This document shows, one piece after another, positions 5,133 through 44,247 of a stretch of DNA of 49,328 nt. The notes beneath the pieces are model-generated. The model worked only from the letters and a program-made list of their open reading frames with translations. It was not told the origin of the DNA and did not search any database. The position numbers and the translations under genes were made by a program. The DNA is taken from the IMG/VR virus record IMGVR_UViG_2778261065_000024, positions 1-49,328 of that record; one strand, 5' to 3'. The first letter of the stretch is position 1. Every line of letters starts with the position of its first letter. The DNA comes from a virus (taxonomy: Duplodnaviria; Heunggongvirae; Uroviricota; Caudoviricetes).

Positions 5133-5986
5133 GCACCATCCTGAAATGGGCGGGAAATAAAACCGCCATTATGTCCGAACTGAAAAAACACCTTCCTGCT
5201 GGCCCGCGACTGGTTGAACCTTTCGCGGGTTCCTGTGCTGTGATGATGGAGACGGATTACCCCAGCTATCTGGTTGCGGATATTAATCCTGATTTAATCA
5301 ACCTCTATAAAAAGGTTGCCGCTGATTGTGAATCGTTTATATCTCGCGCCAGAGTTTTATTTGAGATCGCAAACAGGGAGGTGGCTTATTACAACATAAG
5401 GCAGGAGTTTAATTACTCCACTGAAATTACTGATTTCATGAAAGCGGTATATTTCCTGTATCTCAATCGTCACGGTTACCGTGGTTTATGTCGCTATAAC
5501 AAGAGCGGGCATTTCAACATTCCCTACGGTAATTATAAAAATCCGTATTTCCCTGAAAAAGAAATTCGCGCATTTGCAGAAAAAGCCCAGCGGGCAACGT
5601 TTATCTGCGCCAGCTTTGATGAAACGCTGGCGATGTTGAAGGCGGGGGATGTGGTGTATTGCGATCCGCCGTATGACGGCACGTTTTCCGGTTATCACAC
5701 TGACGGCTTCACTGAAGATGACCAGTATCACCTGGCATCCGTTCTTGAACATCGGTCATCAGAAGGACATCCGGTCATTGTTTCTAACAGTGACACATCC
5801 CTGATCCGTTCGCTGTATCGCAATTTTACTCACCACTACATCAAGGCAAAACGCAACATCGGTGTGGCAGCTGGCGAGGGTAAATCAGCAACAGAAATCA
5901 TTGCTGTTTCCGGGCCGCGCTGCTGGGTGGGATTTGATTATTCGCGTGGCGTGGACAGTTCTGCCGTGTACGGAGTACGTGCATGA
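5129..5986 (+). CDS. dam: DNA adenine methyltransferase (Dam-like, GATC N6-adenine MTase)
   Basis: N-terminal [16 protein letters not shown] (SAM-binding motif) and catalytic DPPY (VYCDPPYDG); overlaps neighbours as in an operon. Confidence 0.85.
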
Positions 5987-8397
5987 GTCATGCCGATATG
6001 AACAACTGCTGCGGCTTTAACGAGGCTACCGCAGCATTCTCATGGAACAGCCCGAAAAAGGCCATTAACCCTTATCTGGACCCGGCGGAAGTTGCGCCGG
6101 TTTCTGCGCTTTCAAACCTGATCACTCTGTACGCTGCCGATAACGAGCAGGAACAACTGCGCCGTGAGGCACTGAGTGATCAGGTCTGGGAGCGTTATTT
6201 CTTTAATGAATCCCGTGATCCTGTCCAGCGCGAAATGGAGCAGGATAAGCTAATTAGCCGGGCAAAGCTGGCGCATGAGCAGCAGCGTTTTAATCCAGAC
6301 ATGGTCATTCTGGCGGATGTCAACGCCCAGCCTTCCCATATCAGCAAGCCGCTGATGCAACGTATTAAATACTTCAGCAACCTGGGCAGGCCAAAGGCTT
6401 ATTCCCGCTATTTGCGTGAGACGATTAAGCCATGCTTGGAACGACTGGAGCATGTACGCGACAGCCAGCTATCTGCATCTTTTCGTTTTATGGCAAGCCA
6501 TGAAGGGCTGGACGGTCTGCTGATCCTGCCTGAAATGAGTCAGGATCAGGTGAAACGCCTGTCCACCCTTGTCGCTGCGCATATGAGCATGTGTCTTGAT
6601 GCCGCTTGTGGTGATTTGTACGCCTCCGATGATGTTAAGCCGGAAGAAATCCGCAAGACATGGGAAAAGGTGGCAGCAGAAACCCTGCGACTGGATGTCA
6701 TACCGCCTGCGTTTGAGCAACTCCGCCGGAAAAGAAACCGCCGCAAACCTGTGCCCTATGAACTCATTCCGGGTTCGCTGGCGCGTATGCTGTGCGCCGA
6801 CTGGTGGTATCGGAAATTATGGAAGATGCGTTGCGAATGGCGGGAAGAGCAGTTGCGTGCTGTCTGTCTGGTCAGCAAAAAAGCATCTCCCTATGTCAGC
6901 TATGAAGCCGTGATGCATAAACGTGAGCAGCGCCGTAAGTCGCTGGAGTTTTTCCGTTCTCATGAACTGGTGAACGAAGACGGCGACACGCTGGACATGG
7001 AGGATGTGGTAAACGCCAGCAGCAGCAACCCTGCGCATCGCCGCAATGAGATGATGGCCTGTGTTAAAGGCCTGGAGCTTATCGCGGAAATACGCGGTGA
7101 CTGCGCCGTTTTCTACACCATCACCTGTCCGTCACGTTTCCATTCCACGCTAAATAACGGCAGGCCCAACCCGACCTGGACAAATGCGACGGTAAGACAA
7201 AGCAGTGATTATCTGGTTGGCATGTTTGCTGCATTTCGTAAGGCGATGCACAAAGCCGGATTGCGCTGGTATGGCGTGCGGGTGGCTGAGCCGCATCATG
7301 ACGGTACAGTTCACTGGCACCTGTTGTGTTTTATGCGCAAAAAAGATCGCCGCGCCATTACTGCTTTGTTGCGTAAGTTTGCCATTCGTGAAGACCGCGA
7401 GGAGCTGGGGAATAACACGGGACCACGCTTTAAGTCTGAGTTGATTAACCCGCGCAAAGGAACGCCGACAAGCTACATCGCGAAATATATCAGTAAGAAC
7501 ATTGACGGGCGTGGTCTGGCTGGCGAGATCAGCAAGGAAACGGGTAAATCCCTGCGTGATAACGCTGAATACGTGAATGCCTGGGCGTCTCTGCATCGTG
7601 TTCAGCAATTCCGCTTCTTTGGCATTCCGGGGCGTCAGGCTTACCGTGAACTGCGATTGCTGGCTGGTCAGGCGGCAAGGCAACAGGGTGACAAAAAAGC
7701 AGGTGCGCCGGTACTGGATAACCCGCGCCTTGATGCAATCCTGGCTGCTGCTGATGCTGGTTGTTTTGCCACCTACATCATGAAGCAGGGCGGCGTACTG
7801 GTTCCCCGTAAATATCACCTCATCAGAACCGCTTATGAAATCAACGAAGAGCCAACCGCCTATGGCGATCACGGTATTCGTATTTATGGCATCTGGTCAC
7901 CCATTGCAGAGGGCAAGATCTGCACTCATGCAGTGAAGTGGAAAATGGTTCGTAAGGCCGTTGACATTCAGGAGGCGGCAGCCGACCAGGGCGCTTGCGC
8001 CCCTTGGACTCGTGGCAATAACTGTCCCCTTGCTGAAAATTTGAACCAACAGGAGAAAGATAAATCAGCTGATGGGGGCCCCAGAACGGACTTTACCCGC
8101 ATGGATGACAAGGAGTTGCACGATTACCTGCACAGTATGAACAAAAAGGGGCGCCGGGAACTGGCTGCAAGGTTACGTCTGGTGAAACCGAAACGGCGTA
8201 GAGACTACAAACAGCGAATTACAGACCATCAACGACAGCAGCTCGTCTATGAACTGAAATCCAGAGGATTTGATGGCAGCGAGAAAGAGGTCGATTTACT
8301 CCTTCGCGGCGGCAGTATTCCGTCAGGAGCAGGCCTGCGTATCTTCTATCGGAACCAGCGTTTGCAGGAAGATGATAAGTGGCGGAACCTGTATTAA
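5983..8397 (+). CDS. A: replication initiation endonuclease gpA (rolling-circle)
   Basis: 804 aa; conserved block shared with the second copy at 41425-44247 ([36 protein letters not shown]); position after the early genes. Confidence 0.9.
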
Positions 8398-8467
8398 TTA
8401 CGCTGGTTAACAATTCGTGCTCTTAATAATACCAGGCATATCAGGCTGATAAGCGTAAAAAAAACGT

Positions 8468-8510
8468 TTTACATCAGTAAGATTATTATATACTGTAAAT
8501 ATAAACAGTG
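8468..8510 (+). promoter_or_regulatory. SOS-regulated promoter: TTTACA -35, TATACT -10, overlapping LexA box TACTGTAAATATAAACAGTG (8491-8510)
   Basis: CTGT-N8-ACAG core (CTGT 8493-8496, ACAG 8505-8508), close to the LexA consensus TACTGTATATATATACAGTA, 40 bp upstream of the 8552 ORF. Confidence 0.6.
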
Positions 8511-8551
8511 GTTATACATACAGCATTGCGTGTGGTGTCATAGGAGGAAAG

Positions 8552-8740
8552 ATGCAGGACTATTTTTTGGAGTCTTTGAAGCTCCAGCGCATTGATTTTT
8601 TTCTTAAGCTTGTAGCGGCTAGTGAGTGTAGTGATGAAGAGAAGGGGCTGGCTCTGCAGTGGGTTTCTGAATTGACTGATGAACTCATGGCAAAAATCAG
8701 AAGCCACGAATACAACCGCTCAATGGATGTCATCAGCTGA
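8552..8740 (+). CDS. small protein (62 aa), possibly a Tum-like antirepressor N-terminal module
   Basis: ATG preceded by TAGGAGGAAAG; downstream of the LexA box; followed 10 bp later by a DinI-like gene. Confidence 0.45.
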   Translation: MQDYFLESLKLQRIDFFLKLVAASECSDEEKGLALQWVSELTDELMAKIRSHEYNRSMDVIS

Positions 8741-8750
8741 GGTGACTTTT

Positions 8751-8984
8751 ATGCGCATTGAAATAATGATCGATAAAGAGCAGAAGATTAGCCAGTCTAC
8801 CCTGGACGCCCTTGAATCCGAGCTTTACCGCAATCTGCGCCCCCTGTATCCCAAAACGGTAATCCGTATCCGTAAAGGTAGCTCTAACGGTGTGGAACTG
8901 ACCGGACTGCAACTGGACGAAGAAAGAAAACAAGTGATGAAAATTATGCAGAAGGTGTGGGAAGACGACAGCTGGCTGTATTGA
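8751..8984 (+). CDS. DinI-family protein
   Basis: 77 aa MRIEIMIDK....TVIRIRKGSSNGVELTGLQLDEERKQVMKIMQKVWEDDSW, resembling the DinI family fold; GAGGTG RBS. Confidence 0.75.
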   Translation: MRIEIMIDKEQKISQSTLDALESELYRNLRPLYPKTVIRIRKGSSNGVELTGLQLDEERKQVMKIMQKVWEDDSWLY

Positions 8985-9097
8985 TTTTGTCAATAGACGC
9001 TTGTTTTTACTAATCAAAAAGGGTTACATATGAGTGAGAGGCGATGTCAATCAGATATCGCCTTGTTTTTTGTCAAGAAAAGAATAATAGGCTAAAA

Positions 9098-9775
9098 ATG
9101 AAAATTAATAATGTAGCGTTACCAATATCTCTTGCTGTAATCCTAACTGGTTGCGTGCCACATGCTTCTAACCGAAATATCACTGCTATTGAAGTGGTGA
9201 AGCCTGCTATTGGGCAAAGTGCTACCGCCTACATGGGCGATCCCATTATCACATCTGCTACTGGATTTAAAACGGACGTACTAGAACTTGGTGCGGCTAA
9301 TGGTGCATTGTCTTCTATCGCTGCTGGTACATATTGCAGTGAGGGGAATGGAATTTACCGCAATTATCATAACCCTCAAGCTGTTGCGTTAAAAAATCTC
9401 TATGGGCAAATCGGTAACTATGTTGATTATGTTAGTTACGATGCTGCAAAAAATGAGATATCACCGCCAAATGGTACTTCTTATACTGCATCAGAAATTT
9501 CTATCAAACGTGTTCCTGATGGGCTGTGTCGAGTTAGTAACTCATTGGTTAAGACTATCGAATACAATGGAAATGCAGGCGGTGTAATGAAGTTCACCTA
9601 TCGTGAATTTGCAAACGATATGGCTCGTGCAGCATTTACAACAGATTTTTCTGTAGATTCTAAGGGAAGTGACGTTATCGCTTACAAAGGTGCCAAGTTC
9701 AAAGTGAACAAGGCTGATAACTCGTCTATTTCTTATACAATTATTTCTGGCTTTGACAAGGCTGTCACGTTCTAG
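9098..9775 (+). CDS. putative lipoprotein (cargo gene; function unknown)
   Basis: N-terminus MKINNVALPISLAVILTGC with lipobox LTGC; alternative start at 9044 with GAGAGG RBS; moderately AT-rich; lies between A and the packaging genes. Confidence 0.7.
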   Translation: MKINNVALPISLAVILTGCVPHASNRNITAIEVVKPAIGQSATAYMGDPIITSATGFKTDVLELGAANGALSSIAAGTYCSEGNGIYRNYHNPQAVALKNLYGQIGNYVDYVSYDAAKNEISPPNGTSYTASEISIKRVPDGLCRVSNSLVKTIEYNGNAGGVMKFTYREFANDMARAAFTTDFSVDSKGSDVIAYKGAKFKVNKADNSSISYTIISGFDKAVTF

Positions 9776-9879
9776 GTTTCACGCTTACTGAGTATGTTAC
9801 GATTTTGCACATTCTGCATAAGCGCGCATGTCTATGCTGCATGAGATCGCATGATCGTTTGAGGATCTTTTGTGTTAAG

Positions 9880-9904
9880 GCCCGCCAGTTCTGGCGGGCT
9901 TTTG
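9880..9904 (+). terminator. rho-independent terminator candidate downstream of the lipoprotein gene
   Basis: GCCCGCCAG-tt-CTGGCGGGC hairpin followed by TTTTG. Confidence 0.5.
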
Positions 9905-9948
9905 CGTAGATCATGCAGGTGCATGAAAACCACTACATAAAGCGGGCA

Positions 9949-9967
9949 GGCGTGGCGGGGATACGAG
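9949..9967 (+). other. candidate cos (cohesive end) site of the 186-like prophage
   Basis: GGCGTGGCGGGGATACGAG resembles the P2 cos cohesive end GGCGAGGCGGGGAAAGCAC as I recall it; correct strand relative to Q; the recalled sequence is not verified. Confidence 0.3.
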
Positions 9968-10077
9968 CGCGCGCTCATGGTTGAATTAATGAAATTATGG
10001 TGTTAAATAGGCTAGCTTTTTAAGTCGTGAATATTCAATTTTTCAACTCATTTTTTTCATAGGGAGGAGTAATTGAC

Positions 10078-10776
10078 ATGGTTATGTTAGTGGATGACTG
10101 TCCACGATGTGGATCACAAAAAATAGCGTTTGATGTTAATGGGCTGAATTGCACTAGGGTTTACAATGCATTGGGCGGGGGTAAAACATACGAGTACGAG
10201 GTCTATTGTGTTTGCCGAGAGTGTCATAAAACGACAATGTTTCTTTGCAGACCTTTAACGAAAAATAAAACTTTAGATGGCTATAATTGGGAAAGTGGAA
10301 TATTCGGCTTAAAGGAAGTTGCAGAGGTTGTTAGGCCTATATCACCGGCAGACTTAGCAGTAGAGGAGCCACCAGAGTTCTTACCTGAGCATATCAATAG
10401 TGCATATGAGGAAGGGGCGAAATGTTTGGCTATAGGTTGTTATAATGCAGCAGCAACCATGTTTAGGCTTTGCCTTGATTATGCCACAAAAGGACTTCTT
10501 CCTGATGGGGAGCAAGGGCCTGCGCAAAAAATAAGGAGAAGCCTAGGGTTAAGAATGGAGTGGTTATTTGATAATCATCTACTGCCTGAAGCTTTAAGGG
10601 AACTAGCTGAATGCGTTAAAGATGACGGAAATGATGGAGCGCATGAAGGTATTTTGGATAAAGCTGCTGCTGAGGATCTTGAAGATTTTACCTATCTTTT
10701 TTTAGAACGGCTTTACACTGAACCTCAACGCCTTATCGAAGCCAAGACAAGGCGTGAACAAAGAAGAAACAAATAA
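10078..10776 (+). CDS. zinc-ribbon protein with DUF4145-like C-terminal domain (cargo gene, candidate defence)
   Basis: 232 aa; strong RBS AGGGAGGAG; N-terminal CPRCG...CVCRECH (C4 zinc ribbon); C-terminal VKDDGNDGAHEG resembles the GN..AH signature I associate with DUF4145; sits between candidate cos and the Q stop. Confidence 0.75.
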   Translation: MVMLVDDCPRCGSQKIAFDVNGLNCTRVYNALGGGKTYEYEVYCVCRECHKTTMFLCRPLTKNKTLDGYNWESGIFGLKEVAEVVRPISPADLAVEEPPEFLPEHINSAYEEGAKCLAIGCYNAAATMFRLCLDYATKGLLPDGEQGPAQKIRRSLGLRMEWLFDNHLLPEALRELAECVKDDGNDGAHEGILDKAAAEDLEDFTYLFLERLYTEPQRLIEAKTRREQRRNK

Positions 10777-10784
10777 GTTCGGAA

Positions 10785-22224: not shown

Positions 22225-23642
22225 GCACAAAATTTTATACCCTGCTGACGGATATTGGCGCGGCGAAACTTGCCAGCGCCGCCGCGCTCGGTGTGCCGCT
22301 AAAAATTACCCATATGGCGGTGGGCGATGGCGGCGGAACATTGCCAACGCCGGACGCCAAGCAGACAGCATTGGTAAATGAGAAACGCCGGGCTGCGCTG
22401 AATATGCTCTATATCGACCCGCAGAACAGCAGCCAGATTATTGCTGAACAGGTGATCCCTGAAAACGAGGGCGGTTGGTGGATACGTGAAGTGGGCCTGT
22501 TTGATGAGTCCGGGGCATTGATTGCCGTGGGCAACTGCCCGGAAAGCTATAAGCCGCAACTGGCTGAAGGCAGCGGGCGTACCCAGACCGTGCGCATGGT
22601 GCTGATTACCAGCAGCACGGACAATATCACCCTGAAAATCGACCCTGCCGTAGTGCTGGCAACCCGCAAGTATGTGGATGACAAGGTACTGGAGCTGAAG
22701 GTGTACGTGGATGATCAGATGGCAAAACATCTTGCCGCACCGGACCCGCATTCACAGTATGCACCCAAAGAAAGTCCGACGTTTACCGGGACACCAAAAG
22801 CGCCAACTCCAGCGGCAGGGAATAACACCACGCAGGTTGCGACCACCGCGTTTGTTCAGGCGGCACTGACGGCTCTTATTAATGGTGCGCCAGCCACGCT
22901 GGACACGCTGAAAGAAATAGCCGCAGCCATTAACAATGATCCGAATTTCAGTACCACCATTAACAATGCGCTGGCACTGAAAGCGCCGTTGTCGAGTCCG
23001 GCACTCACCGGAACGCCAACAGCCCCCACTGCTGCACAGTCGGTCAACAATACACAGATTGCCACCACGGCTTTTGTGAAATCGGCGATTGCAGCAATGG
23101 TAGGTTCTGCACCTGCGGCACTGGATACACTGAACGAACTGGCGTCGGCGTTGGGGAATGATCCGAACTTTGCCACGACAATGCTTAATGCGCTGGCAGG
23201 TAAACAACCGCTGGACAATACGCTGACTAATTTGAGTGGAAAGGATGTCGCTGGTCTTCTCGCATACCTTGGTTTGGGAGAAGCGGCAAAACGGGAGGTG
23301 GGGACAGGGGAAAATCAGATACCGGACATGGCTTCTTTTGCCAGTGGTGATGGATGGATGAAATTACCCAACGGGAAAATCCTGCAATATGGTCGAGGTG
23401 CGGTTACGCCAACATTATCGACGCAAACAATGAGAATTACATTCAGCATCCCTTTTCCTAAAAAAGTGGACTGCGCCATGCTTACCCATTCTGGTGATGG
23501 TGGTGCGCCTTTAGGCGCTGGACGGGGATTCGTGATGACTGCAGAAGGTCCAACACTAACCGGTTTTAATTCCGCTTACAGAACTGCATCAACCAGCTCC
23601 ACAGTATCGATGAATTACAGTTGGTGGGCTGTTGGTGAGTAA
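22221..23642 (+). CDS. H: tail fibre protein gpH
   Basis: 473 aa; conserved N-terminal about 150 aa shared with 24680-26293; repeated NDPNF / ATTAFV motifs. Confidence 0.85.
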   Translation: MSTKFYTLLTDIGAAKLASAAALGVPLKITHMAVGDGGGTLPTPDAKQTALVNEKRRAALNMLYIDPQNSSQIIAEQVIPENEGGWWIREVGLFDESGALIAVGNCPESYKPQLAEGSGRTQTVRMVLITSSTDNITLKIDPAVVLATRKYVDDKVLELKVYVDDQMAKHLAAPDPHSQYAPKESPTFTGTPKAPTPAAGNNTTQVATTAFVQAALTALINGAPATLDTLKEIAAAINNDPNFSTTINNALALKAPLSSPALTGTPTAPTAAQSVNNTQIATTAFVKSAIAAMVGSAPAALDTLNELASALGNDPNFATTMLNALAGKQPLDNTLTNLSGKDVAGLLAYLGLGEAAKREVGTGENQIPDMASFASGDGWMKLPNGKILQYGRGAVTPTLSTQTMRITFSIPFPKKVDCAMLTHSGDGGAPLGAGRGFVMTAEGPTLTGFNSAYRTASTSSTVSMNYSWWAVGE

Positions 23643-23662
23643 TTTTATTCAGGGTGATTTAT

Positions 23663-24106
23663 ATGAACGAATATGTTTATAGCGCAAGGCATAATGCTTT
23701 TTTCCCTGTGGATATGATTGATAAATATAAATCAGAGGGATGGGATTTATCAGATGCAAAGGAGGTGAATCAAAATATTATCAGTGAGTTTATGGCTGAA
23801 CCGCCACAAGGAAAAATCCGTATTGCCGGAGATGATGGGCTGCCTGCGTGGGCAGATATTCCTCTACCCACGCATGAAGAGCTTATTGAAATTACTGAAT
23901 CAGAAAGACAGCTACTAATTAACCAGGCCAACGAATACATGAACAGTAAGCAATGGCCCGGTAAAGCCGCTATTGGTCGTCTGAAAGGTGAGGAACTGGC
24001 GCAATATAATTTGTGGCTGGATTATCTGGATGCACTGGAGCTGGTTGATACCTCCAGTGCACCAGATATTGAATGGCCTACGCCTCCAGCAGTACAGGCC
24101 AGATGA
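23663..24106 (+). CDS. G: tail fibre assembly protein gpG
   Basis: Follows H; C-terminal ...SAPDIEWPTPP resembles the C-terminus of the convergent paralogue; ORF opens with GTG at 23654. Confidence 0.75.
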   Translation: MNEYVYSARHNAFFPVDMIDKYKSEGWDLSDAKEVNQNIISEFMAEPPQGKIRIAGDDGLPAWADIPLPTHEELIEITESERQLLINQANEYMNSKQWPGKAAIGRLKGEELAQYNLWLDYLDALELVDTSSAPDIEWPTPPAVQAR

Positions 24107-24680
24107 CCTCCGGCGCGGTGCTGGTATCTGTTGCCGTCACCGCGTCAATGTAATCCAGCACGGCGTTAAGTCGGGTTGTTTCTGCCTGCGTCAACTTCCG
24201 TCCGGCCTGCAATTTCAGTTGAATCAGACTGATGGAGGCCATCGCAGCATCAATCAGTGACTGGCGCTGTGCTTCTGCTGCTTCTACTGCGGCGTTATGC
24301 TGTGCCTCAGTATCTGTCACCCATTTCTCACCATCCCATTTATCGTATAGCGTTAACGGGGCGATAGTGGTTGTATTTTCAGGGTAATTACCCGGCACCG
24401 TGATTTCTTTTGCTTCTCCTGTTTCGGTGCTATAGATAATTTCACCGCGATGGTCTGGCATATATTCCCATGAGTTTAAATCTACTGAACGGCAGATTGC
24501 ATAACCAGCCTTATATGTGCCAGGAGCATCTAAACAGGAATATGCCGGGATACCGACACCAACAGCAAGATATTCATTTGAAGTGGAAATATATTCCCGT
24601 GTTTCACCATCATAGTTATAGACGGTAATATTCCCCGCCTTCGTGGCAATAAGTTCGCTATTTAATACGGCTTTATCCAT
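24078..24680 (-). CDS. G: tail fibre assembly protein gpG (second prophage segment)
   Basis: 200 aa, downstream of the second H gene; C-terminal ...STAPEVIWPVLLEA; 3' end overlaps the other G ORF by 29 bp. Confidence 0.8.
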   Translation of the reverse strand: MDKAVLNSELIATKAGNITVYNYDGETREYISTSNEYLAVGVGIPAYSCLDAPGTYKAGYAICRSVDLNSWEYMPDHRGEIIYSTETGEAKEITVPGNYPENTTTIAPLTLYDKWDGEKWVTDTEAQHNAAVEAAEAQRQSLIDAAMASISLIQLKLQAGRKLTQAETTRLNAVLDYIDAVTATDTSTAPEVIWPVLLEA

Positions 24681-26293
24681 TATGCAGCTCTCACGATATA
24701 GTTAAATGCAATATTTCGTGGACGGGTTTCGCTCCCACCTGTGTTACCAATACTCCCTCGTGTATGTAGCGTTGGTGATGGAATCAGAGTTCCTCCGACA
24801 TCGGCAGCATCAAGCCCCCGGCCTTGCGTATATGCTCTTCTGAAGATTGTCGCCAGTTCCCATTCCTCTTTTGAATCATACCCATCGTTGGCAACAACAA
24901 TATGGCGGTGCTTCTCCAGCATCCCAGTCTGAATGCTCAATAAAGCACGTCCAGCATCAACGCCTCGTCCGTCATCCCAGCCACGAATAAACTCACCACG
25001 GAGATCAGGTAGTTTCCCTGATGGATATGCTGTAGCAAGATGGGGATATTTAACCTTATCAAAGGCGGCGCCATTGCATTTCAACCAGCCTGTCGGCAAA
25101 GTGGCTGAAGGCCATGGAACAGGCACACCAACGGGTAATGCAGAGCCTTCTCCCAAACCAAGGTAATCAAGAACCCCCTGCGTGCTGGGCTTACTAAGAA
25201 TGGCACGTCCAACACTTGTCAGTGCGGTTAACGCGGCGCGATCTGCACCTGTAAAATAAGGGAGTTTATCTGCTGCTGTAGCAAGTCCTGCCAGCGCCGT
25301 CAGGGTAGCATCCTTCGGTTGCTTACCCGCAAGCGCGTTAGTCATGGTTGTCGCAAAATTCGGGTCGTTACCCAGCGCCGCCGCCAGCTCGTTCAGCGTG
25401 TTCAGTGCGTCAGGTGACGAGTCTACAAGCGCGGCAATCGCGGCCATAACATAAGCCGTGCTTGCGATCTGAGTATTATTAGTCCCCTGTGGCGCTGTTG
25501 GCGTTGTTGGCGTTCCGGTCAGTGCCGGGCTGTTTAATGGGGCTTTCTTGTTTGTTTCATCCATTACCACCTTAACGGCTTTTGGTGTCGCTGCCAGTGT
25601 TTCAGACGTGCTGTTCGTGGCGCTACTGAGCTGAACAATCCCTTTTTGTGTTGTGGTGGCATTCTGGGCGGTATATTTCCCGCTAGCCAGGTCATATGCA
25701 GCCTTAACCGCTTTCGGTGTTGCGGCCAGTGTTTCTGATTCACTGTTAATTGCACTGCTTAACTGAGTGAAACCTTTTGCGGTCAGCGAGGCGTCCGGGT
25801 GGCGTCGTGACTGTTCGTGCTCTGAGATTTTGTCATCCACATATTTGCGGGTTGCCAGAACCACAGACGGGTCGATTTTCAGCGTGATAGCTTCGGTATT
25901 CGTGACAACCAGAATCATGCGGATAGTCTGGGTACGACCACTGCCTTCCTGCAACTGCGGTTTGTACGTTTCCGGGCAGTTCGCCACCGCAATGAGTACG
26001 CCTTCATCATCATAAAGCCCAATCTCACGTATCCAGAATCCGCCCTCGTTCTCAGGGATGATTTGCTCCGCAATAATCTGGTTCTGGTTGTTCGGGTCAA
26101 CACTCAGAAGATTCAGCGGTGCAATGCGTTTCTGGTTAATCAGTTTTGTTTGTGCAGGGTCTGGTGTTGGTAACACACCATTTGCATCACCAACGGCCAT
26201 TTGCGTCAGATTCAGCTTACTGCCGAGCATCGTCGCGTTAGCCAGTCGTGCCGCGCCCTGATTAGTCAGAATGGCGTAGTATTTCACTGTCAT
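24680..26293 (-). CDS. H: tail fibre protein gpH (second segment)
   Basis: 537 aa; conserved N-terminus (AVGD..LPTPD, IPENEGG.WIRE) shared with 22221-23642. Confidence 0.85.
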   Translation of the reverse strand: MTVKYYAILTNQGAARLANATMLGSKLNLTQMAVGDANGVLPTPDPAQTKLINQKRIAPLNLLSVDPNNQNQIIAEQIIPENEGGFWIREIGLYDDEGVLIAVANCPETYKPQLQEGSGRTQTIRMILVVTNTEAITLKIDPSVVLATRKYVDDKISEHEQSRRHPDASLTAKGFTQLSSAINSESETLAATPKAVKAAYDLASGKYTAQNATTTQKGIVQLSSATNSTSETLAATPKAVKVVMDETNKKAPLNSPALTGTPTTPTAPQGTNNTQIASTAYVMAAIAALVDSSPDALNTLNELAAALGNDPNFATTMTNALAGKQPKDATLTALAGLATAADKLPYFTGADRAALTALTSVGRAILSKPSTQGVLDYLGLGEGSALPVGVPVPWPSATLPTGWLKCNGAAFDKVKYPHLATAYPSGKLPDLRGEFIRGWDDGRGVDAGRALLSIQTGMLEKHRHIVVANDGYDSKEEWELATIFRRAYTQGRGLDAADVGGTLIPSPTLHTRGSIGNTGGSETRPRNIAFNYIVRAA

Positions 26294-38328: not shown

Positions 38329-38709
38329 TCAAAAAGAAGACTGGAACTCTTCTGCTCTGCGCTCAATTTCTGCCATGTAGGATGTACGGGCTAACTCATG
38401 CGCATTGGGTGTCATAATGCTGATTAGCTGATACTTATCTGGATATAAGAAATGGCGGGAGTAAACAAGATAACTGTTTGATTTACGCGAGGCGGCAGGT
38501 AGCTTTGCAGGCCACGGCTGTTCATCAGGTAAACGAATGTGAATCTTAAAAACAAAAGAATCACGAAGACGCCCGCTATCTTCCCACTGCCCTTCGTTGC
38601 CAAAGACTGAGGGTAAAGATCCGCCGTTTTTCCATGACTGCAAAGCATGTGCATATTTACGAGCAACTGCGGGGAGTTCTATGTCATTGTGGACAGAGAC
38701 TTTAATCAT
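38329..38709 (-). CDS. YafO-family toxin (ribosome-dependent mRNA interferase family)
   Basis: 126 aa; blocks GSLPSVFGNEGQWEDS, FKIHI, SYLVYSRHF..YQLISIMTPNAHELAR..MAEIERRAEEF align with E. coli YafO as I recall it. Confidence 0.75.
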   Translation of the reverse strand: MIKVSVHNDIELPAVARKYAHALQSWKNGGSLPSVFGNEGQWEDSGRLRDSFVFKIHIRLPDEQPWPAKLPAASRKSNSYLVYSRHFLYPDKYQLISIMTPNAHELARTSYMAEIERRAEEFQSSF

Positions 38710-38718
38710 GGCCCTGCC

Positions 38719-39312
38719 TTAATGGAACGTTGGATCTTCAAGGCCCAGCTTTTTATGTTCACTGCGGATAAGTGCGTGAACCTGATCGGCGGTAACACCC
38801 AGATCAGCATCTGAAGTTTTCTTCGGCACATGCGTGCTTTCAATGAAGGATAAAATATCTTCAATCGTATAGCGAAGCGTCGCAGCGGAACGAGCAAAAG
38901 CGACAATCTCTTTTCTCAGTTCCGCGTTACTTTCAGGTACGCTTTTCAGCGCAACCTTTGCAGCCTCGACAAAACTTGCACATACCGCAATATGACGGAA
39001 AAGGCTTTCAAACCCTTCCTGAGTCTCTTTTTTCTGATTTTTCAGAATAATAGGGAGCTGCTTTTCTTCCCATTCGATGCGAAGGTTTGCCCTGTGTGTC
39101 TTCATCCTATCAGCCAGGTTAAGCATATAACTGGTGGCCTCATCAATAGGAAGGTATGCCACAGAATCCTTTACGTCCTGGAGGGATAGCGTAGACGTAC
39201 TGTGCCGGGAGATTGATAAGTCATGATGCACAATGCTACTGGCAGGAACAGGGGCGAGAGCCACCGCCAGCGCTGCGGCCATAGATGTTATTTTATTTTT
39301 TTTACTGCTCAT
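38719..39312 (-). CDS. hypothetical protein with signal-peptide-like N-terminus, co-oriented 10 bp upstream of the YafO-family toxin
   Basis: ATG at 39312 after AGGAAAGG; N-terminus MSSKKNKITSMAAALAVALAPVPASS; ORF opens at 39363; unlike YafN. Confidence 0.6.
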   Translation of the reverse strand: MSSKKNKITSMAAALAVALAPVPASSIVHHDLSISRHSTSTLSLQDVKDSVAYLPIDEATSYMLNLADRMKTHRANLRIEWEEKQLPIILKNQKKETQEGFESLFRHIAVCASFVEAAKVALKSVPESNAELRKEIVAFARSAATLRYTIEDILSFIESTHVPKKTSDADLGVTADQVHALIRSEHKKLGLEDPTFH

Positions 39313-39484
39313 AATTGCCTTTCCTGCCAATAATCGTGAACCACTGCCGGAATGATAGCGCAAAAAATCACCCGCTGAAACGAATTATCCTTGCGGCAAA
39401 ACTAGCCCGCGTCAACCTCATACCACGCCAGCGTCGATTGATAGTTTTGTGCCGCCTCGCGTAATGCCTGATAGTCAATCTTGC

Positions 39485-40012
39485 TCACTGGTTGCCTCCT
39501 TTGCGGAGTAGCGCCAGCTCTTCCTGCGCCTGCATCATGCGATTGACCTGAACGCGTGTGCGTCGAACGGCAAAATTAAATTGAAACATGAGCCGGAACA
39601 TTTCTGAGGCTTCCGTGTGAACATCATGGAGAGGTGACAGGCGGTACAGTTCTGCCTCCGTAGCTTGTTGAATCAATGACAGATCAAATTGAAGTGCGGG
39701 TCTGGTACATTTTGCACATCTGGCAGCAAGCTCCGGCATCAGTTTCTTAACGAAGGTGTTTTGCACCGCTTTGTTGAGTTGTGTCTGCATCCAAATCGCA
39801 AATTTCAGCGAACGCATAAATTTGATAGCCTCGGGCAGCGGCAGATAGATCATGCTAGTAGATTTGGGTGGTTGGTGAATCATCTTCACGGATACGCGAT
39901 TTCGCAGCGTTCGGAAAATCGTGTTCCCAACAACAGCTTCTACGGATACAGGACAGGGAGCCAGACCAGCCCGCAGTGCTTCTTTCATTAGCATGTATTC
40001 GTATTTTTTCAT
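39485..40012 (-). CDS. hypothetical protein (175 aa) downstream of parR
   Basis: ORF co-oriented with parMR; no recognisable motifs. Confidence 0.55.
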   Translation of the reverse strand: MKKYEYMLMKEALRAGLAPCPVSVEAVVGNTIFRTLRNRVSVKMIHQPPKSTSMIYLPLPEAIKFMRSLKFAIWMQTQLNKAVQNTFVKKLMPELAARCAKCTRPALQFDLSLIQQATEAELYRLSPLHDVHTEASEMFRLMFQFNFAVRRTRVQVNRMMQAQEELALLRKGGNQ

Positions 40013-40072
40013 TGTGTTTTCCTCGTGCGGGGCGACAGTGCGCCCCGATAAAATTAAAAGCCGTCAAATTCG

Positions 40073-40384
40073 TCATTCAGGAAATAATGCCCGGATATTC
40101 CCTGCCATCTGGCTGGTTATCTGTGCGGTTGGTGCTGTCTGTGACGCGAGGCGTTCTGTCCTGGTTTGTGTCACTGATAACGCCTCATCGTCAGCCCATG
40201 CGGCCAGTCGGTAAGCCTCTGCCGGATTCATTTTCAGAAGTGCCAGCCCGGCCAGAAAAGCCATGCGTTGGACGCTTTTGCGGGCTTCTGGTGTAAGGCT
40301 GTCCAGCCAGGCGCATGCTTCGCCTTCGTTCTTGACGGCGGCGGGCTTCAGATAGAAACTTATCCGTCTGGTTGGTGTCGTCAT
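40073..40384 (-). CDS. parR: ParR/StbB-like centromere-binding partition protein
   Basis: 103 aa; ISFYLKPAAV...LDSLTPEARKSVQRMAFLAGLAL resembles R1 ParR; immediately downstream of parM. Confidence 0.7.
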   Translation of the reverse strand: MTTPTRRISFYLKPAAVKNEGEACAWLDSLTPEARKSVQRMAFLAGLALLKMNPAEAYRLAAWADDEALSVTQTRTERLASQTAPTAQITSQMAGNIRALFPE

Positions 40385-40388
40385 TGGT

Positions 40389-41348
40389 TTACTCCTTGTT
40401 CATTGCGTACAGCCCATTAACCAGAGCAAACTGTGGCACCCCGTCCGCGATGAAAGTCGCATTAACTCCGCAGGCTTCGCGGATAGCGGGTGCCACAATC
40501 TCCGCTCCTCCACCGACAACCATCACCCGCCCGTAACCGGAAAAACCCGCCAGCACGCGGATCACACGTTGTTTCAGTGTTTCTTCCTTTTCACGAATAA
40601 CCGCCACCAGGCTGGCGTAATGCGCGTCATTGTGGATGTGCTGGCGCAGCCAGGCTTCATCATGGCGATGTTCGATAATGGTATTGGCGATGTGGTGACT
40701 GGTACGCATACCGTTAGTGGCCATCACCGACAGTACGGCATCGGCCATCAGGGAAACGCCTACGTGTGGATCGCAAAACACCTGGCTGATACCTGCCAGT
40801 TGTCCCTGAACCTTTGCCACATCCAGCGTGGTTCCGCCTAAATCCACAATCAGCAGGGATTCAAACGGACTCATGTCAGCCAGTGCTTTAAAACCAGCCG
40901 GAATGGATTCAGGCATAACCCGTACGTTACGGATAGTGAATGCTTTTCCGTTCTGGTATTCCACCGGGCGCATGACGTTTGCTTTTTTGCGGTTGATGTT
41001 GGCCATGTCCGGCTGTGCGTTTGTGTCGAAATACTCGCTCAGTGGCAGGGTGACAACCACATCCACCTCCTGTGGTGTGATGCCTGATTTGACCAGCGCG
41101 TGATGAATGGCAATGACATTCACATCGCTGTACTGGTATTGCGTGTCGGTCGTCTGGACAAAGCGATCGCTGACCGGATCAAAACCATAGCGCACGCCAT
41201 CAAGCATGTAGTTCGCGGGCTGCGTGCCACCGAACGGCGCAGACCATTCCGACTTGAAGCTGTTCGGGCTGATAGCGTTGCGGCGTTCGCCGTTCTCAGT
41301 CCATGCCAGCTTGATGTTGGTGGAGCCGTCGTCGATACAAATTTTCAT
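40389..41348 (-). CDS. parM: ParM/StbA actin-like partition ATPase
   Basis: 319 aa; MKICIDDGSTNIKLAW, SPNSFK, YSDVNVIAIHHAL, VMPESIPAGF, LIVDLGGTTLDV, VMVVGGGAEI match ParM/StbA conserved blocks. Confidence 0.9.
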   Translation of the reverse strand: MKICIDDGSTNIKLAWTENGERRNAISPNSFKSEWSAPFGGTQPANYMLDGVRYGFDPVSDRFVQTTDTQYQYSDVNVIAIHHALVKSGITPQEVDVVVTLPLSEYFDTNAQPDMANINRKKANVMRPVEYQNGKAFTIRNVRVMPESIPAGFKALADMSPFESLLIVDLGGTTLDVAKVQGQLAGISQVFCDPHVGVSLMADAVLSVMATNGMRTSHHIANTIIEHRHDEAWLRQHIHNDAHYASLVAVIREKEETLKQRVIRVLAGFSGYGRVMVVGGGAEIVAPAIREACGVNATFIADGVPQFALVNGLYAMNKE

Positions 41349-41379
41349 GTCGCTTTTCCTTATGTTGATTAATTAATCG

Positions 41380-41492
41380 TTTACGGGATTCTGAAATCCC
41401 GTTTTTGCCTGTTTTGTGCGCGCTTCATATATCGCTGCGCGTTTTTTGGTCATTTACGGGATTCGTGAGTCCCGTTTCTGTCTGTTTTTTGT
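41380..41492. repeat. two about 40-bp direct repeats, each with a palindromic core (ACGGGATTC..AATCCCGT), upstream of parM; candidate parC-like site
   Basis: tttacgggattctgaaatcccgtttttgcctgttttgtg (41380-41418) and tttacgggattcgtgagtcccgtttctgtctgttttttgt (41453-41492); the second lies within the 3' end of the A ORF. Confidence 0.5.
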
Positions 41493-44247
41493 TTCCGCTG
41501 GTCAGGCCACCCCGCAGCAGGTCTGCTTTGCGGCTGGCGCGTTCAGTGGTTTCACTGATTCTCTGTGCGTGCTCTGCGTCGCGGATGGCGCGCAGCATGT
41601 CAGAAAGCACGGTAACGGGTGTTTTCATGGTGTTCTGGTCCTGCTGAAGTGTGGATGCCAGGCGTGCGGCGGCTTCAGGGTCTGATGCCCCCAGCTGTGC
41701 CAGATAGCTGGCGACCGGGTTATGGCGGATCTCCGTGCTGCTTACGCCATGATTACGGCTCAGGCGCTGCCAGAGCTGCGTGATTCGGCTGTCCGGGCGG
41801 GTATCCGGTTTGCGTACAATTTCAAATCCCTGCGGTGCAATGATGCTGCCGTCAACGTACAGACTGCCGCCCCGTAACAGGTGCTGCATCTGTTGTTCAC
41901 CGATATGCAGGCCGAGAGATTCAGCAGACTCCCGCCATTCTTTAGCGAGTAACTCGTGGTTATCAGGCAAAGGTCGCGGCTGTTTGCGGCTCTGTGTCCA
42001 GTTCTGCATTTCATCGCTGCTGTTTTTTGCCTGTTTGTCACGAAGCGAACGCATCAGCGCCCGGCGTTCGTGTCGTTTCAGTGAGCGCATCCATTCATTC
42101 ACTTCAACGCCGTCAGGGATCTGCGGCCACGGTGCTGGCCGTTCTTCCGGCTGTTCTGTCCCGTTGTTGTCCGTTTCCTGTGCACGGGGACAGTTATTGC
42201 CACGAGTCCAAGGGGCGGCAGGGCCGCCCTGAAGGTCAAAACCATTTTCGTGGGTGCTGTCTTCCGCTTCCGGTTTACGTCTTACCAGCTTCCAGTTATC
42301 CGGGTGCGTGCACACACGGGAGGATTCCCCGATGAGTGGCGACCAGATCCCGTAAATCTGTACACTCTGTTCGCCGTAATCGTTCAGCTCATCTGCGAGG
42401 TCGTAGGCTGTGCGAATCAGGTAGTCCTTGCGCGGAACAAGTACGCCACCCTGTTTTTCAATGTAGGTGGCAAAACACCCGGCATCAGCGGCAGCAAGAA
42501 CCGCATCCATTGCGTCATCCTTCAGCCGTTGCGGGCCCTCCGGGTTGCGTGCCATCTGGCTGGCAAGGCGGCGGAGTTCACGCCACACCTGACGGGAGGG
42601 AATGCCAAAGAACTGGAACTGGCGGACCCGGTGAAGGCGCGCCCAGCCGATGGCGCGCTCCACGCTCTCGGCCATTGATTTTCCTGTTTCGTGGTCAACG
42701 CGTGGTTTGCCCGTTTTCGGGTCGATGCCATCCACGGCGCGGCTGTCCAGGTTCTTTCCGATGTAGGTGGCGATGTAGCTGGTTGGCGTGCCTTTTGAGC
42801 CGTCTACATACTCCGCCTTAAAGCGCGGAGTAATATCATCGCCCAGCTCGTGACGATCTTCCTGAATGGCAATATCGCGGGTGTGGGACACAATGGTGTC
42901 GATTTCTTCCGGATGGGCAAAGACCATCATATGCCAGTGCACGGTTCCGTCATGGTGAGGCTCCACCGTGCGGATGCCATACCAGCGCAGGCCGTCGCGG
43001 TTCAGTTTTTTGCGGACCGCCGCAAAAAACGTGTTAACCAGGTAATCGCTGGAGTCGCGCATGGTGGCCCCGTTCCATTTGGGGTTCGGATGACCGTTCT
43101 CCGTTGTTGCGTGGTATTTTGACGGGCAGGTGACAGTCAGAAACACCGCTCTGTCGCCACGGGCTTCGGCCAGAAGTTCCAGTCCCTTCATGGTGGCCAT
43201 CATTTCTGCCTTACGGTGAACCGGGTTACTTACTCCCGCGTAATACACTGTCTCGAGATCAATCGTGAACCCGTCTTCATTTTCCAGCATGAAACTTTTC
43301 AGGAAATCGCGTGTTTTCTCGCGCTGTGCGCGAAACTCGCTTAACGCGTCCTGGCTCAGATAGGGTGATGTTTTTCTGGAAACCAGACAGGCGGCGCGGA
43401 GTTGTTCTTCTCTCCACTCGCAACGTAACAGCCACAGTTTGCGTTTCCACCATTCCGCACAGGTCAGGCGAAGGATTGCGCCCGGCAGCAGCTCCGTGTC
43501 CGGTTCGTTCCTCCGGTCTTTGTCTGTTGTCAGTGCGTCATAATGTGGAGGCATGGCGTGCAGGTGTAACGCCATGCGGGCCAGCATCTGATACGCCTTC
43601 AGCGTTACATCCATGGTCAGTTCGCCATCAGTCGCGCCAAAGCCATCGCAGAGTTTTTCGAAGGTGCTGCTGAACATCGCCGCCGTCATGGTGGCCAGCG
43701 TCTGTATCTGGTGCTTGTTGAGCTGCGGCAGGTAAAGCAAATCATCCAGGCGTTCGCGTCCGGCAAGGGAGCGATAACCCGGTGTCAGCCAGCGGTGGTC
43801 GGTGCGGTCCAGACGTTCGAATATTTTGCGCAGGGTTCCGCGCGCGTAGCGTTCAGCCTGCCAGCTCTTTTTGCCTTTCCGGCGATCGACTTCCTGTTTT
43901 TTGCGCAGGAAGGAGAGGTGGCGAATAAGCGGATCGCGCAGATAGGACGGCAGCAGGCGCAGCGAGGCCATGGCTTCATCCACCGCGCCGCGTGCCTGTT
44001 TTCTGGCGTCTCCTGCCAGTGTGATGGTTTTGTCCTGTTTTTCCTGTGCATCCAGGCTTTTATTAATCAGGTTGCCCAGCGGCGTGGCGGAGAACGCCGC
44101 ATCAGCCATTTCCTGGCGGCGCTCGTTCTCTGCCCGGTAGGCATCCAGCCAGGAGGAAAGCGCAGATTCAGGAACGGGGATCCCCGTTCCTTCACGTCCC
44201 ACTGCGTGGCGCGGTTGTTGCCAGTCCCTGATGTACTCTGCCGTCAT
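41425..44247 (-). CDS. A: replication initiation endonuclease gpA (second segment)
   Basis: 940 aa; paralogue of 5983-8397 with the same conserved blocks. Confidence 0.9.
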   Translation of the reverse strand: MTAEYIRDWQQPRHAVGREGTGIPVPESALSSWLDAYRAENERRQEMADAAFSATPLGNLINKSLDAQEKQDKTITLAGDARKQARGAVDEAMASLRLLPSYLRDPLIRHLSFLRKKQEVDRRKGKKSWQAERYARGTLRKIFERLDRTDHRWLTPGYRSLAGRERLDDLLYLPQLNKHQIQTLATMTAAMFSSTFEKLCDGFGATDGELTMDVTLKAYQMLARMALHLHAMPPHYDALTTDKDRRNEPDTELLPGAILRLTCAEWWKRKLWLLRCEWREEQLRAACLVSRKTSPYLSQDALSEFRAQREKTRDFLKSFMLENEDGFTIDLETVYYAGVSNPVHRKAEMMATMKGLELLAEARGDRAVFLTVTCPSKYHATTENGHPNPKWNGATMRDSSDYLVNTFFAAVRKKLNRDGLRWYGIRTVEPHHDGTVHWHMMVFAHPEEIDTIVSHTRDIAIQEDRHELGDDITPRFKAEYVDGSKGTPTSYIATYIGKNLDSRAVDGIDPKTGKPRVDHETGKSMAESVERAIGWARLHRVRQFQFFGIPSRQVWRELRRLASQMARNPEGPQRLKDDAMDAVLAAADAGCFATYIEKQGGVLVPRKDYLIRTAYDLADELNDYGEQSVQIYGIWSPLIGESSRVCTHPDNWKLVRRKPEAEDSTHENGFDLQGGPAAPWTRGNNCPRAQETDNNGTEQPEERPAPWPQIPDGVEVNEWMRSLKRHERRALMRSLRDKQAKNSSDEMQNWTQSRKQPRPLPDNHELLAKEWRESAESLGLHIGEQQMQHLLRGGSLYVDGSIIAPQGFEIVRKPDTRPDSRITQLWQRLSRNHGVSSTEIRHNPVASYLAQLGASDPEAAARLASTLQQDQNTMKTPVTVLSDMLRAIRDAEHAQRISETTERASRKADLLRGGLTSGNKKQTETGLTNPVNDQKTRSDI

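Follow-up and report, generated by a model that had tools for sequence, protein, structure and literature searches.

A Candidate ParMRC Partition Module in the Backbone of P88-Like Integrating Phages

The DNA analyzed here, IMG/VR record IMGVR_UViG_2778261065_000024 (positions 1 to 49,328, 49,328 nt in all; hereafter the window), carries an actin-type partition cassette within an integrase-bearing P2-like prophage. The cassette is made of two direct repeats, a parM gene, and a parR gene, located in this order directly behind the replication gene A. Judged by sequence comparison, it is a vertically conserved core component of the backbone of P88-like (Xuanwuvirus) integrating phages. We favor, with moderate confidence, the view that it is a functional ParMRC module that moves the phage genome while this is a free circle. 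The genes themselves have been annotated before: GenBank/RefSeq records and PHROGs label them as partition proteins, and the name given in databases is "plasmid segregation protein."

A parM/parR Pair behind Gene A

The cassette and the gene that precedes it comprise the following features, all cassette genes being on the minus strand:

41425-44247, minus strand: gene A, 940 amino acids (aa), P2-type rolling-circle replication initiator (Pfam Phage_GPA, 5.4e-131)
41450-41491, minus strand: candidate parC repeat 2 (distal), made of an A/C-rich flank, the palindrome GGGACT-CACG-AATCCC, and GTAAATGA
41419-41449, minus strand: inter-repeat spacer, 31 nt, which holds the gene A stop codon (41425-41427)
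41377-41418, minus strand: candidate parC repeat 1 (proximal), with the palindrome GGGATT-TCAG-AATCCC
40389-41348, minus strand: parM, 319 aa, actin-fold filament-forming ATPase
40073-40384, minus strand: parR, 103 aa, centromere-binding adaptor by family

ParM is recognized by its two domains (Pfam StbA_N, 3.8e-82; ParM C-terminal domain, 5.3e-68) and matches the ParM of plasmid R1 (PDB 1mwk) over residues 2-316 (phmmer, 1.3e-92). Its nucleotide-binding blocks IDDGSTNIKL, DLGGTTLD, and GGGAE align with R1 ParM, and it belongs to PHROG 691, "partition protein." ParR, whose open reading frame (ORF) begins 4 nt past the parM stop, is a member of Pfam family PF10784 (Plasmid_stab_B, 2.5e-24) and of PHROG 2515; a profile of its homologs matches the ParR of pB171 (2jd3) across the DNA-binding domain (E 0.0017). 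An earlier note on this DNA had placed a type II parM/parR pair directly behind gene A of an integrase-bearing prophage, and the Pfam and R1 ParM matches bear this out.

In the ParR proteins of R1 and pB171, a ribbon-helix-helix domain at the N-terminus is followed by a flexible region that binds ParM with its tip. A corresponding layout is seen among 62 distinct ParR sequences related to that of the window: the N-terminus (residues 1-65) is almost invariant, including the stretch RRISFYLKP, residues 66-92 form a hypervariable linker diverged beyond recognition, and the C-terminal motif NI(R/Q)x(L/F)FP is invariant or nearly so. This motif resembles the end of an IncI-plasmid ParR, NIKNLFPDDE. 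The AlphaFold2 (AF2) monomer model, with a mean predicted local distance difference test (pLDDT) score of only 57, contains helices at residues 20-29, 32-52, and 54-61 but no N-terminal strand; the ribbon-helix-helix fold requires a dimer. At least two allelic classes of ParR can be told apart (loci L017-L135), which share about 51-56% identity and have a linker of 25 residues that is hypervariable. ParM stays 97-99% identical. The repeats are the same in all ParR classes, which fits a shared DNA-binding strand.

parM lies 76 nt past gene A on the same strand. The terminator scan detected no gene-strand terminator between the two genes, and in a consensus scan of the cassette no sigma-70 promoter with at least 9 of 12 consensus matches was found. 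From this arrangement we infer that parMR is expressed by read-through from the early replication operon, at a time when the genome would be a free circle. Weak promoter-like stretches matching 8 of 12 positions can be picked by eye (TTCAGA-16-ATTAAT and ATGACC-16-TATATG, the latter in the spacer), and a promoter in the 41419-41449 spacer could at most be inferred. An autoregulated parMR promoter within the centromere is not claimed, the consensus scan being empty. Gene A itself varies in length: 940 aa in the P88-like prophage versus 804 aa in the neighboring prophage of the window, whereas phages of the type found at locus L073 have a gene A of 773 aa followed by a separate 159-aa ORF (L073:6460-6939) before the repeats.

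Two Direct Repeats as the Best Candidate Centromere

Both repeats lie 28-142 nt upstream of parM: 28 nt separate the end of repeat 1 from the parM start codon, and the distal repeat (41450-41491) falls within the final 22 codons of gene A. Each repeat measures 42 nt and bears a 16-bp palindrome, GGGAYT-N4-AATCCC; the two are 81% identical and their starts are 73 nt apart. Their ungapped direct-repeat score of 18 is the best in the interval 39300-41700, compared with 11.2 +/- 1.0 (maximum 14) in 100 dinucleotide shuffles. No further copy of the palindrome occurs elsewhere in the 49-kb window and no other repeat family was found near parMR. Successive A3+C/T tracts within and beside the repeats have their ends 10, 22, 11, 30, 10, and 22 nt apart. 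These A-tracts are thus in helical phase, like the A/C-rich iterons of R1 parC.

The repeats are inherited together with parMR. Repeat 1 is nearly invariant in 67 distinct upstream sequences, and repeat 2 is kept in Escherichia coli, E. albertii, Salmonella, and Hafnia relatives; in the Hafnia relatives, the repeats are kept even though the gene A 3' end has diverged so far that it is hard to align. Scanning the collection for the palindrome yielded 119 viral contigs, and in nearly all of them the motif sits between a gene A homolog and parM-parR. The exceptions are one chance match, contigs ending at the motif, and one deletion. At loci L073 and L098, the upstream region is unrelated, and the left edge of the distal repeat marks where homology to the window sets in; the L073 gene A (773 aa) is only 31% identical, and its parM is 97% identical. 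The window also offers an internal control, as its left prophage possesses a gene A and has neither parMR nor the palindrome, the cargo there running straight into Q/P. This indicates that the repeats belong to parMR and not to gene A.

On this basis, the inherited unit is repeat 2, spacer, repeat 1, parM, and parR, with the frame of the P88-type gene A running into it. The two repeats are the best candidate for the centromere and are predicted to be the ParR sites. The earlier note had also proposed direct repeats with palindromic cores for this role, and its proposal is strengthened by a score above that of the shuffles, their co-inheritance with parMR, and their absence from the left prophage. 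We also looked at whether the repeats are a feature of gene A 3' ends in phages lacking parMR, and this idea failed on L073 and L098 and on the left prophage.

Distribution and Selection

The nearest phages are P88 and other members of Xuanwuvirus (Peduoviridae), in which parR, parM, and the gene A 3' end are 96-98% identical to those of the window; similarity to them ends at the end of parR. The designation P88-like refers to this nucleotide identity and to the taxonomy of the records. The cassette is also present in PhiSM of Citrobacter rodentium (96.6% identity) and in 1304 of 5426 complete E. coli genomes (24%), among whose carriers are EC958 and strains of O145, O103, and O157. The scan of genome contigs with ParM returned near-identical loci only, and depth was taken from ParR homologs. 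ParM 97% identical to that of the window is further encoded by a cassette in a contig labeled Vagococcus sp., a Firmicute (L007, NZ_JBQPOM010000071.1); this label probably reflects enterobacterial contamination or a mislabeled assembly.

Against 96 other alleles, parM shows a median nonsynonymous divergence (dN) of 0.008 and synonymous divergence (dS) of 0.095, with a dN/dS of 0.086. parM is under purifying selection. Among the loci with enough sequence, parM is intact in 59 of 62, and 58 of 62 (94%) have an intact parR in addition. Natural losses occur: in L083 (5000-5410), a clean deletion starts at codon 14 of parM, ends immediately beyond parR, and spares both repeats, and in L075, L120, and L123 either parM or parR is disrupted.

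Chromosomal Residence and Relation to Plasmids

In the 5426 E. coli genomes, copies of the cassette occupy 1450 chromosomal places versus 2 plasmid places. A search with a 749-nt query for the phage attachment site (attP) in 440 genomes with a pdxB-type integrase revealed no uninterrupted attP, all matches breaking at the core, near position 343. These observations agree with experiments on the phages themselves: PhiSM has been shown to lysogenize K-12 by integration at a 17-bp site in pdxB (PMC6456863), and P88 is inducible from the chromosome by mitomycin C (PMC6456863, PMC5285337).

In PLSDB, six records encode a ParM 95-99% identical to that of the window, all others being below 60%, and outside phage-like records there is no plasmid ParM more than 52% identical. 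The high-identity records that we examined have matches to the phage gene A/parM/parR block as well; a 34.4-kb circle is among them. Searches of PLSDB with ParR (tblastn) and with the 152-nt centromere (blastn) retrieved only the same few phage-block records. We therefore rejected a recent capture of the cassette from a plasmid, as the nearest plasmid ParM is at most 52% identical and neither ParR nor the centromere is found on other PLSDB plasmids.

The circular record, pZ1323PEC0009-2 (L002, NZ_CP148288.1), is a complete 34,461-bp "plasmid" from a cat E. coli isolate. It contains a whole P88-like genome in which the published attP core, ATCCTTGTTGATGAAAA, is uninterrupted, and PLSDB assigns it no replicon type. 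A 99.9% identical phage is integrated in the human isolate Z1323HEC0067 from the same study; strain Z1323PEC0009 itself lies outside the E. coli collection searched. The record may correspond to excised or replicating phage DNA, or to a true episome. The only replication protein detected near the cassette is gpA, although not every prophage ORF was scanned for Rep domains. A stable plasmid lifestyle of P88-like phages is not supported and seems unlikely.

Several expectations voiced in the earlier note have to be revised in this light. Type II partition, described there as a hallmark of plasmids and phage-plasmids and not of integrating P2-like phages, belongs to the P88/Xuanwuvirus backbone, is found at 1450 chromosomal versus 2 plasmid places, and occurs in PhiSM, which integrates. 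A recent acquisition of the block from a plasmid is at odds with a nearest plasmid ParM at no more than 52% identity and with a ParR type and centromere confined to phage-block records in PLSDB. As for stable extrachromosomal maintenance, the sole hint is the 34.4-kb circular record, and a near-identical twin of that phage is integrated elsewhere.

Proposed Role and Alternative Explanations

P2-type phages replicate by a gpA-initiated rolling circle that yields monomeric circles. We propose that ParR dimers would bind the two 42-bp repeats upstream of parM, with their 16-bp palindromes and helically phased A-tracts, and that the conserved C-terminal tail of ParR would capture the ends of ParM filaments, whose growth would push apart ParR-bound DNA molecules. 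The substrate would be the free circular phage genome, after infection and prior to integration, and again after excision, when gpA-driven rolling-circle replication would yield circular copies. The benefit may be that each of the two daughter cells retains a copy while this phase lasts, that genomes are spread for replication and packaging, or both. With the phage integrated, as it is in a stable lysogen, the module would be idle or held low by ParR.

Several points weigh against this proposal. The binding of ParR to the repeats is a prediction, and the palindrome stems never vary, hence they provide no covariation-type evidence; both palindromes also resemble intrinsic terminators on the plus strand. 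The ribbon-helix-helix fold of ParR is likewise a prediction, the AF2 monomer model being of low confidence (pLDDT 57). The natural deletion and disruptions in L083, L075, L120, and L123 imply that the prophage state, at least, does not require the module. The comparison set is shallow and mostly from E. coli, with Hafnia as the only distant case, and our literature search retrieved annotations of the cassette only and no functional work on it. Finally, the sequence does not tell apart which free-circle stage is served, be it establishment, spontaneous excision, or lytic replication.

P88-like phages might alternatively be facultative phage-plasmids, maintained over many generations as low-copy episomes by ParMRC, for example where the bacterial attachment site (attB) is missing or occupied. 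A low-copy episome needs just such a complete partition system under selection, pZ1323PEC0009-2 is a circle with the whole phage and an uninterrupted attP core, and the P2-like Burkholderia phage KS14 is kept as a plasmid prophage (PMC3091744). Nevertheless, we consider this unlikely: 1450 of the 1452 E. coli copies are chromosomal, the 440 genomes with a pdxB-type integrase contain no uninterrupted attP, and the lysogens of PhiSM are integrated (PMC6456863). KS14, moreover, owns RepB and ParA, whereas gpA is the only replication protein identified near the cassette and the circular record is without replicon type; given its 99.9% identical relative integrated elsewhere, this record may be excised or replicating DNA. 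The corresponding statement that P88-like phages lead a dual life, either integrating or persisting as gpA-replicated, ParMRC-partitioned low-copy circles such as pZ1323PEC0009-2, is doubtful to the same degree. A function on the side of the lysogen, by which ParR, ParM, or both would interfere with incoming related phages or plasmids through centromere competition or ParR repression, or would act on the chromosome, would suit both the adjacent P2-type cargo/defense hotspot and the existence of divergent ParR allelic classes, as might arise under conflict. We give it little credence, because no PADLOC defense model matches ParM or ParR, the centromere and ParR type are absent from PLSDB beyond the phage-block records, leaving no plasmid target, the ParR classes differ mostly in the linker with the DNA-binding strand and the repeats unchanged, and the cassette is invariant, unlike the neighboring cargo.

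The resemblance of the palindromes to terminators raises the question of whether the repeats are tandem intrinsic terminators that halt antisense (plus-strand) transcription into gene A, with ParR sites, if any, elsewhere. On the plus strand, both were indeed called terminator-like, with an 8-bp stem, a T-rich tail, and a fold of about -10 kcal/mol each, and the sole polymorphism in an arm, in repeat 2, gives a G-U wobble on the plus-strand RNA and a C-A mismatch on the gene-strand RNA. However, the similarity between the repeats spans 42 nt, well past hairpin and tail, the pair travels with parMR and sits exactly at the expected position of parC, and there is no other repeat family near parMR. 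We judge a terminator function to the exclusion of a centromere improbable, and the two functions are compatible. That the cassette is an inert passenger, of plasmid descent and hitchhiking with gene A without use to the phage, seems highly improbable: the deletion and disruptions listed above are what would be expected of it, but dN/dS is 0.086, 94% of the loci are intact, the C-terminal motif of ParR is kept despite a free-running linker, and the module persists both among Hafnia relatives and in a lineage of phages whose gene A is different. Exclusion by the lysogen and an inert passenger both fit the conservation data poorly. The partitioning of a free phage circle by ParMRC remains the reading that we prefer.

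Variable Cargo and the Two Prophages of the Window

When 59 loci are compared, the 300 nt past parR are of at least 18 mutually unrelated types, so that the known P2-type cargo hotspot begins directly past parR. In the window, this site carries the following genes:

39485-40012, minus strand: 175-aa ORF, variable cargo outside the cassette
38329-39363, minus strand: YafO-family toxin (126 aa, Pfam 2.3e-27) and its upstream partner (198-214 aa)

The 175-aa ORF has no match in Pfam, NCBIfam, PHROGs, or PADLOC. In the region 39417-40012 (minus strand), this ORF precedes a fragment that bears the annotation of a truncated ead/Ea22-like gene. This short fragment is about 92% identical to many Shiga toxin (Stx) and lambdoid phages, which suggests a recombination scar in the hotspot. 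The partner of the YafO-like toxin matches no family and may be an unusual antitoxin. A reading of the locus as a defense system was dropped, since ParM, ParR, the 175-aa ORF, and the YafO pair match no PADLOC model.

The cargo at this site is not common to P88. Of the interval 39485-41492 originally proposed as the partition cassette, the repeats and parMR stand, but the 175-aa ORF at 39485-40012 has to be counted as cargo. The toxin module had been tied to partition as well; the YafO-like pair, however, lies in the hypervariable site with its 18 or more types in 59 loci and is absent from P88. As toxin genes are unlinked to parMR in other phages, the argument from partition plus addiction fails.

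The window consists of two P2-family prophages in opposite orientation, joined tail fibre to tail fibre (junction at about 23265-25164). Positions 25147-49328 are 100% identical to a chromosomal prophage of E. coli MFDS1022581 that adjoins pheL/pheA and has its integrase gene at its end, and positions 1-23264 match, at 100% identity, a 186-like prophage found in strain MFDS1019527. Between them, positions 23265-25164 correspond to an invertible tail-fibre segment, flipped relative to the MFDS1022581 record. Within the window, sheath, tube, tape-measure, D, and ogr genes are absent from both prophages. The join looks like either a large inversion by invertase-mediated recombination between prophages or a chimeric assembly.

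The left prophage encodes an integrase (1534-2547), a CI-type repressor, CII, Dam, and the 804-aa gene A product (5983-8397). Its cargo hotspot (8400-10780, plus strand) encodes a DUF4145 protein of 232 aa along with two small ORFs and one of 243 aa that has no Pfam match. "GapS1 family protein" is one of the RefSeq names under the 23-kb match of this prophage as a whole. Located at the position equivalent to that of parMR and its adjoining cargo, this hotspot may be a defense locus.

Comparison with Known Systems and Significance

The cassette has the organization of the ParMRC system (parA locus) of plasmids R1/NR1: the order is centromere, parM, parR, with the repeats directly upstream of parM. 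The P88-like ParM is 47% identical to R1-type StbA. Its ParR, likewise small and in the Pfam family of R1 ParR, is also built from a DNA-binding part at the N-terminus and a tail at the C-terminus, but is only 27% identical to R1 ParR and 14 residues shorter. The R1 parC is made of ten 11-bp iterons. Both centromeres are A/C-rich with a phasing of roughly 10-11 bp; that of the P88-like phages is made of two 42-bp repeats with 16-bp palindromes, whereas in R1 short A/C-rich direct iterons flank the promoter. Unlike in R1, the distal half of the P88-like centromere overlaps the coding end of gene A and there is no consensus promoter inside. The carriers differ too, a plasmid in one case and an integrating prophage in the other.

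The closest functional model for the proposed role is, by analogy, srpMRC of the SXT/R391 integrative and conjugative elements (ICEs), which reduces the loss of the excised rolling-circle form and stabilizes a single-copy plasmid (PMC4489591; Carraro et al. 2015). As would be the case in P88-like phages, this is an actin-type partition system in a normally integrated element that undergoes rolling-circle replication only when excised (PMC4489591). The carrier is a conjugative element and not a phage, SrpM is only a distant relative of R1 ParM, and SrpR has no recognizable ParR domain (PMC4489591). Furthermore, srpMRC is cotranscribed with int under SetCD control (PMC4489591), whereas the P88-like module follows the replication gene. 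In the prophage CGP3 of Corynebacterium glutamicum, AlpAC/alpS is induced early, circular phage DNA is linked to actin-like filaments, and efficient replication requires AlpAC (PMC4446434; Donovan et al. 2015). It shares with the P88-like module the setting of an integrated prophage, and an actin-like filament protein with a DNA-binding adaptor, which in CGP3 binds sites upstream of its own operon (PMC4446434). It differs by its Gram-positive host, a very divergent actin-like protein, and an adaptor gene that comes first and has no sequence relation to parR.

Partition genes also occur in phages maintained as plasmids. The 91-kb phage record D6, which we take to be a P1-like plasmid prophage, encodes a StbA-type ParM 48% identical to the P88-like ParM. 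KS14 of Burkholderia is, like P88, a P2-like phage, and exists as a plasmid prophage, but its plasmid initiator is RepB, its partition gene is of type I (ParA), and its recombinase belongs to the serine class (PMC3091744). Compared with KS14 and D6, the P88-like phage, which is found integrated, uses a tyrosine integrase and replicates by a gpA rolling circle.

The P88-like ParMRC represents a separate lineage of a system already known, and its type of context is known as well; its interest lies in its abundance and in the question of its role. Actin-type partition is taught as plasmid equipment; here it is part of the backbone of a genus of integrating P2-like phages present in about 24% of complete E. 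coli genomes. Matches to parM and parR alone are no ground for calling a contig a plasmid or a phage-plasmid. Should the dual lifestyle prove true, against our expectation, one in four E. coli genomes would contain a phage-plasmid in latent form, with an episomal phase that has escaped notice. P88 and PhiSM can be induced, form plaques, and infect K-12, making this a tractable E. coli system in which to ask why an integrating rolling-circle virus keeps a segregation motor. The answer may lie in the inheritance of the circle before integration or after excision, or in the spatial organization of replication and packaging, roles that have been shown for the SXT/R391 ICEs and CGP3.

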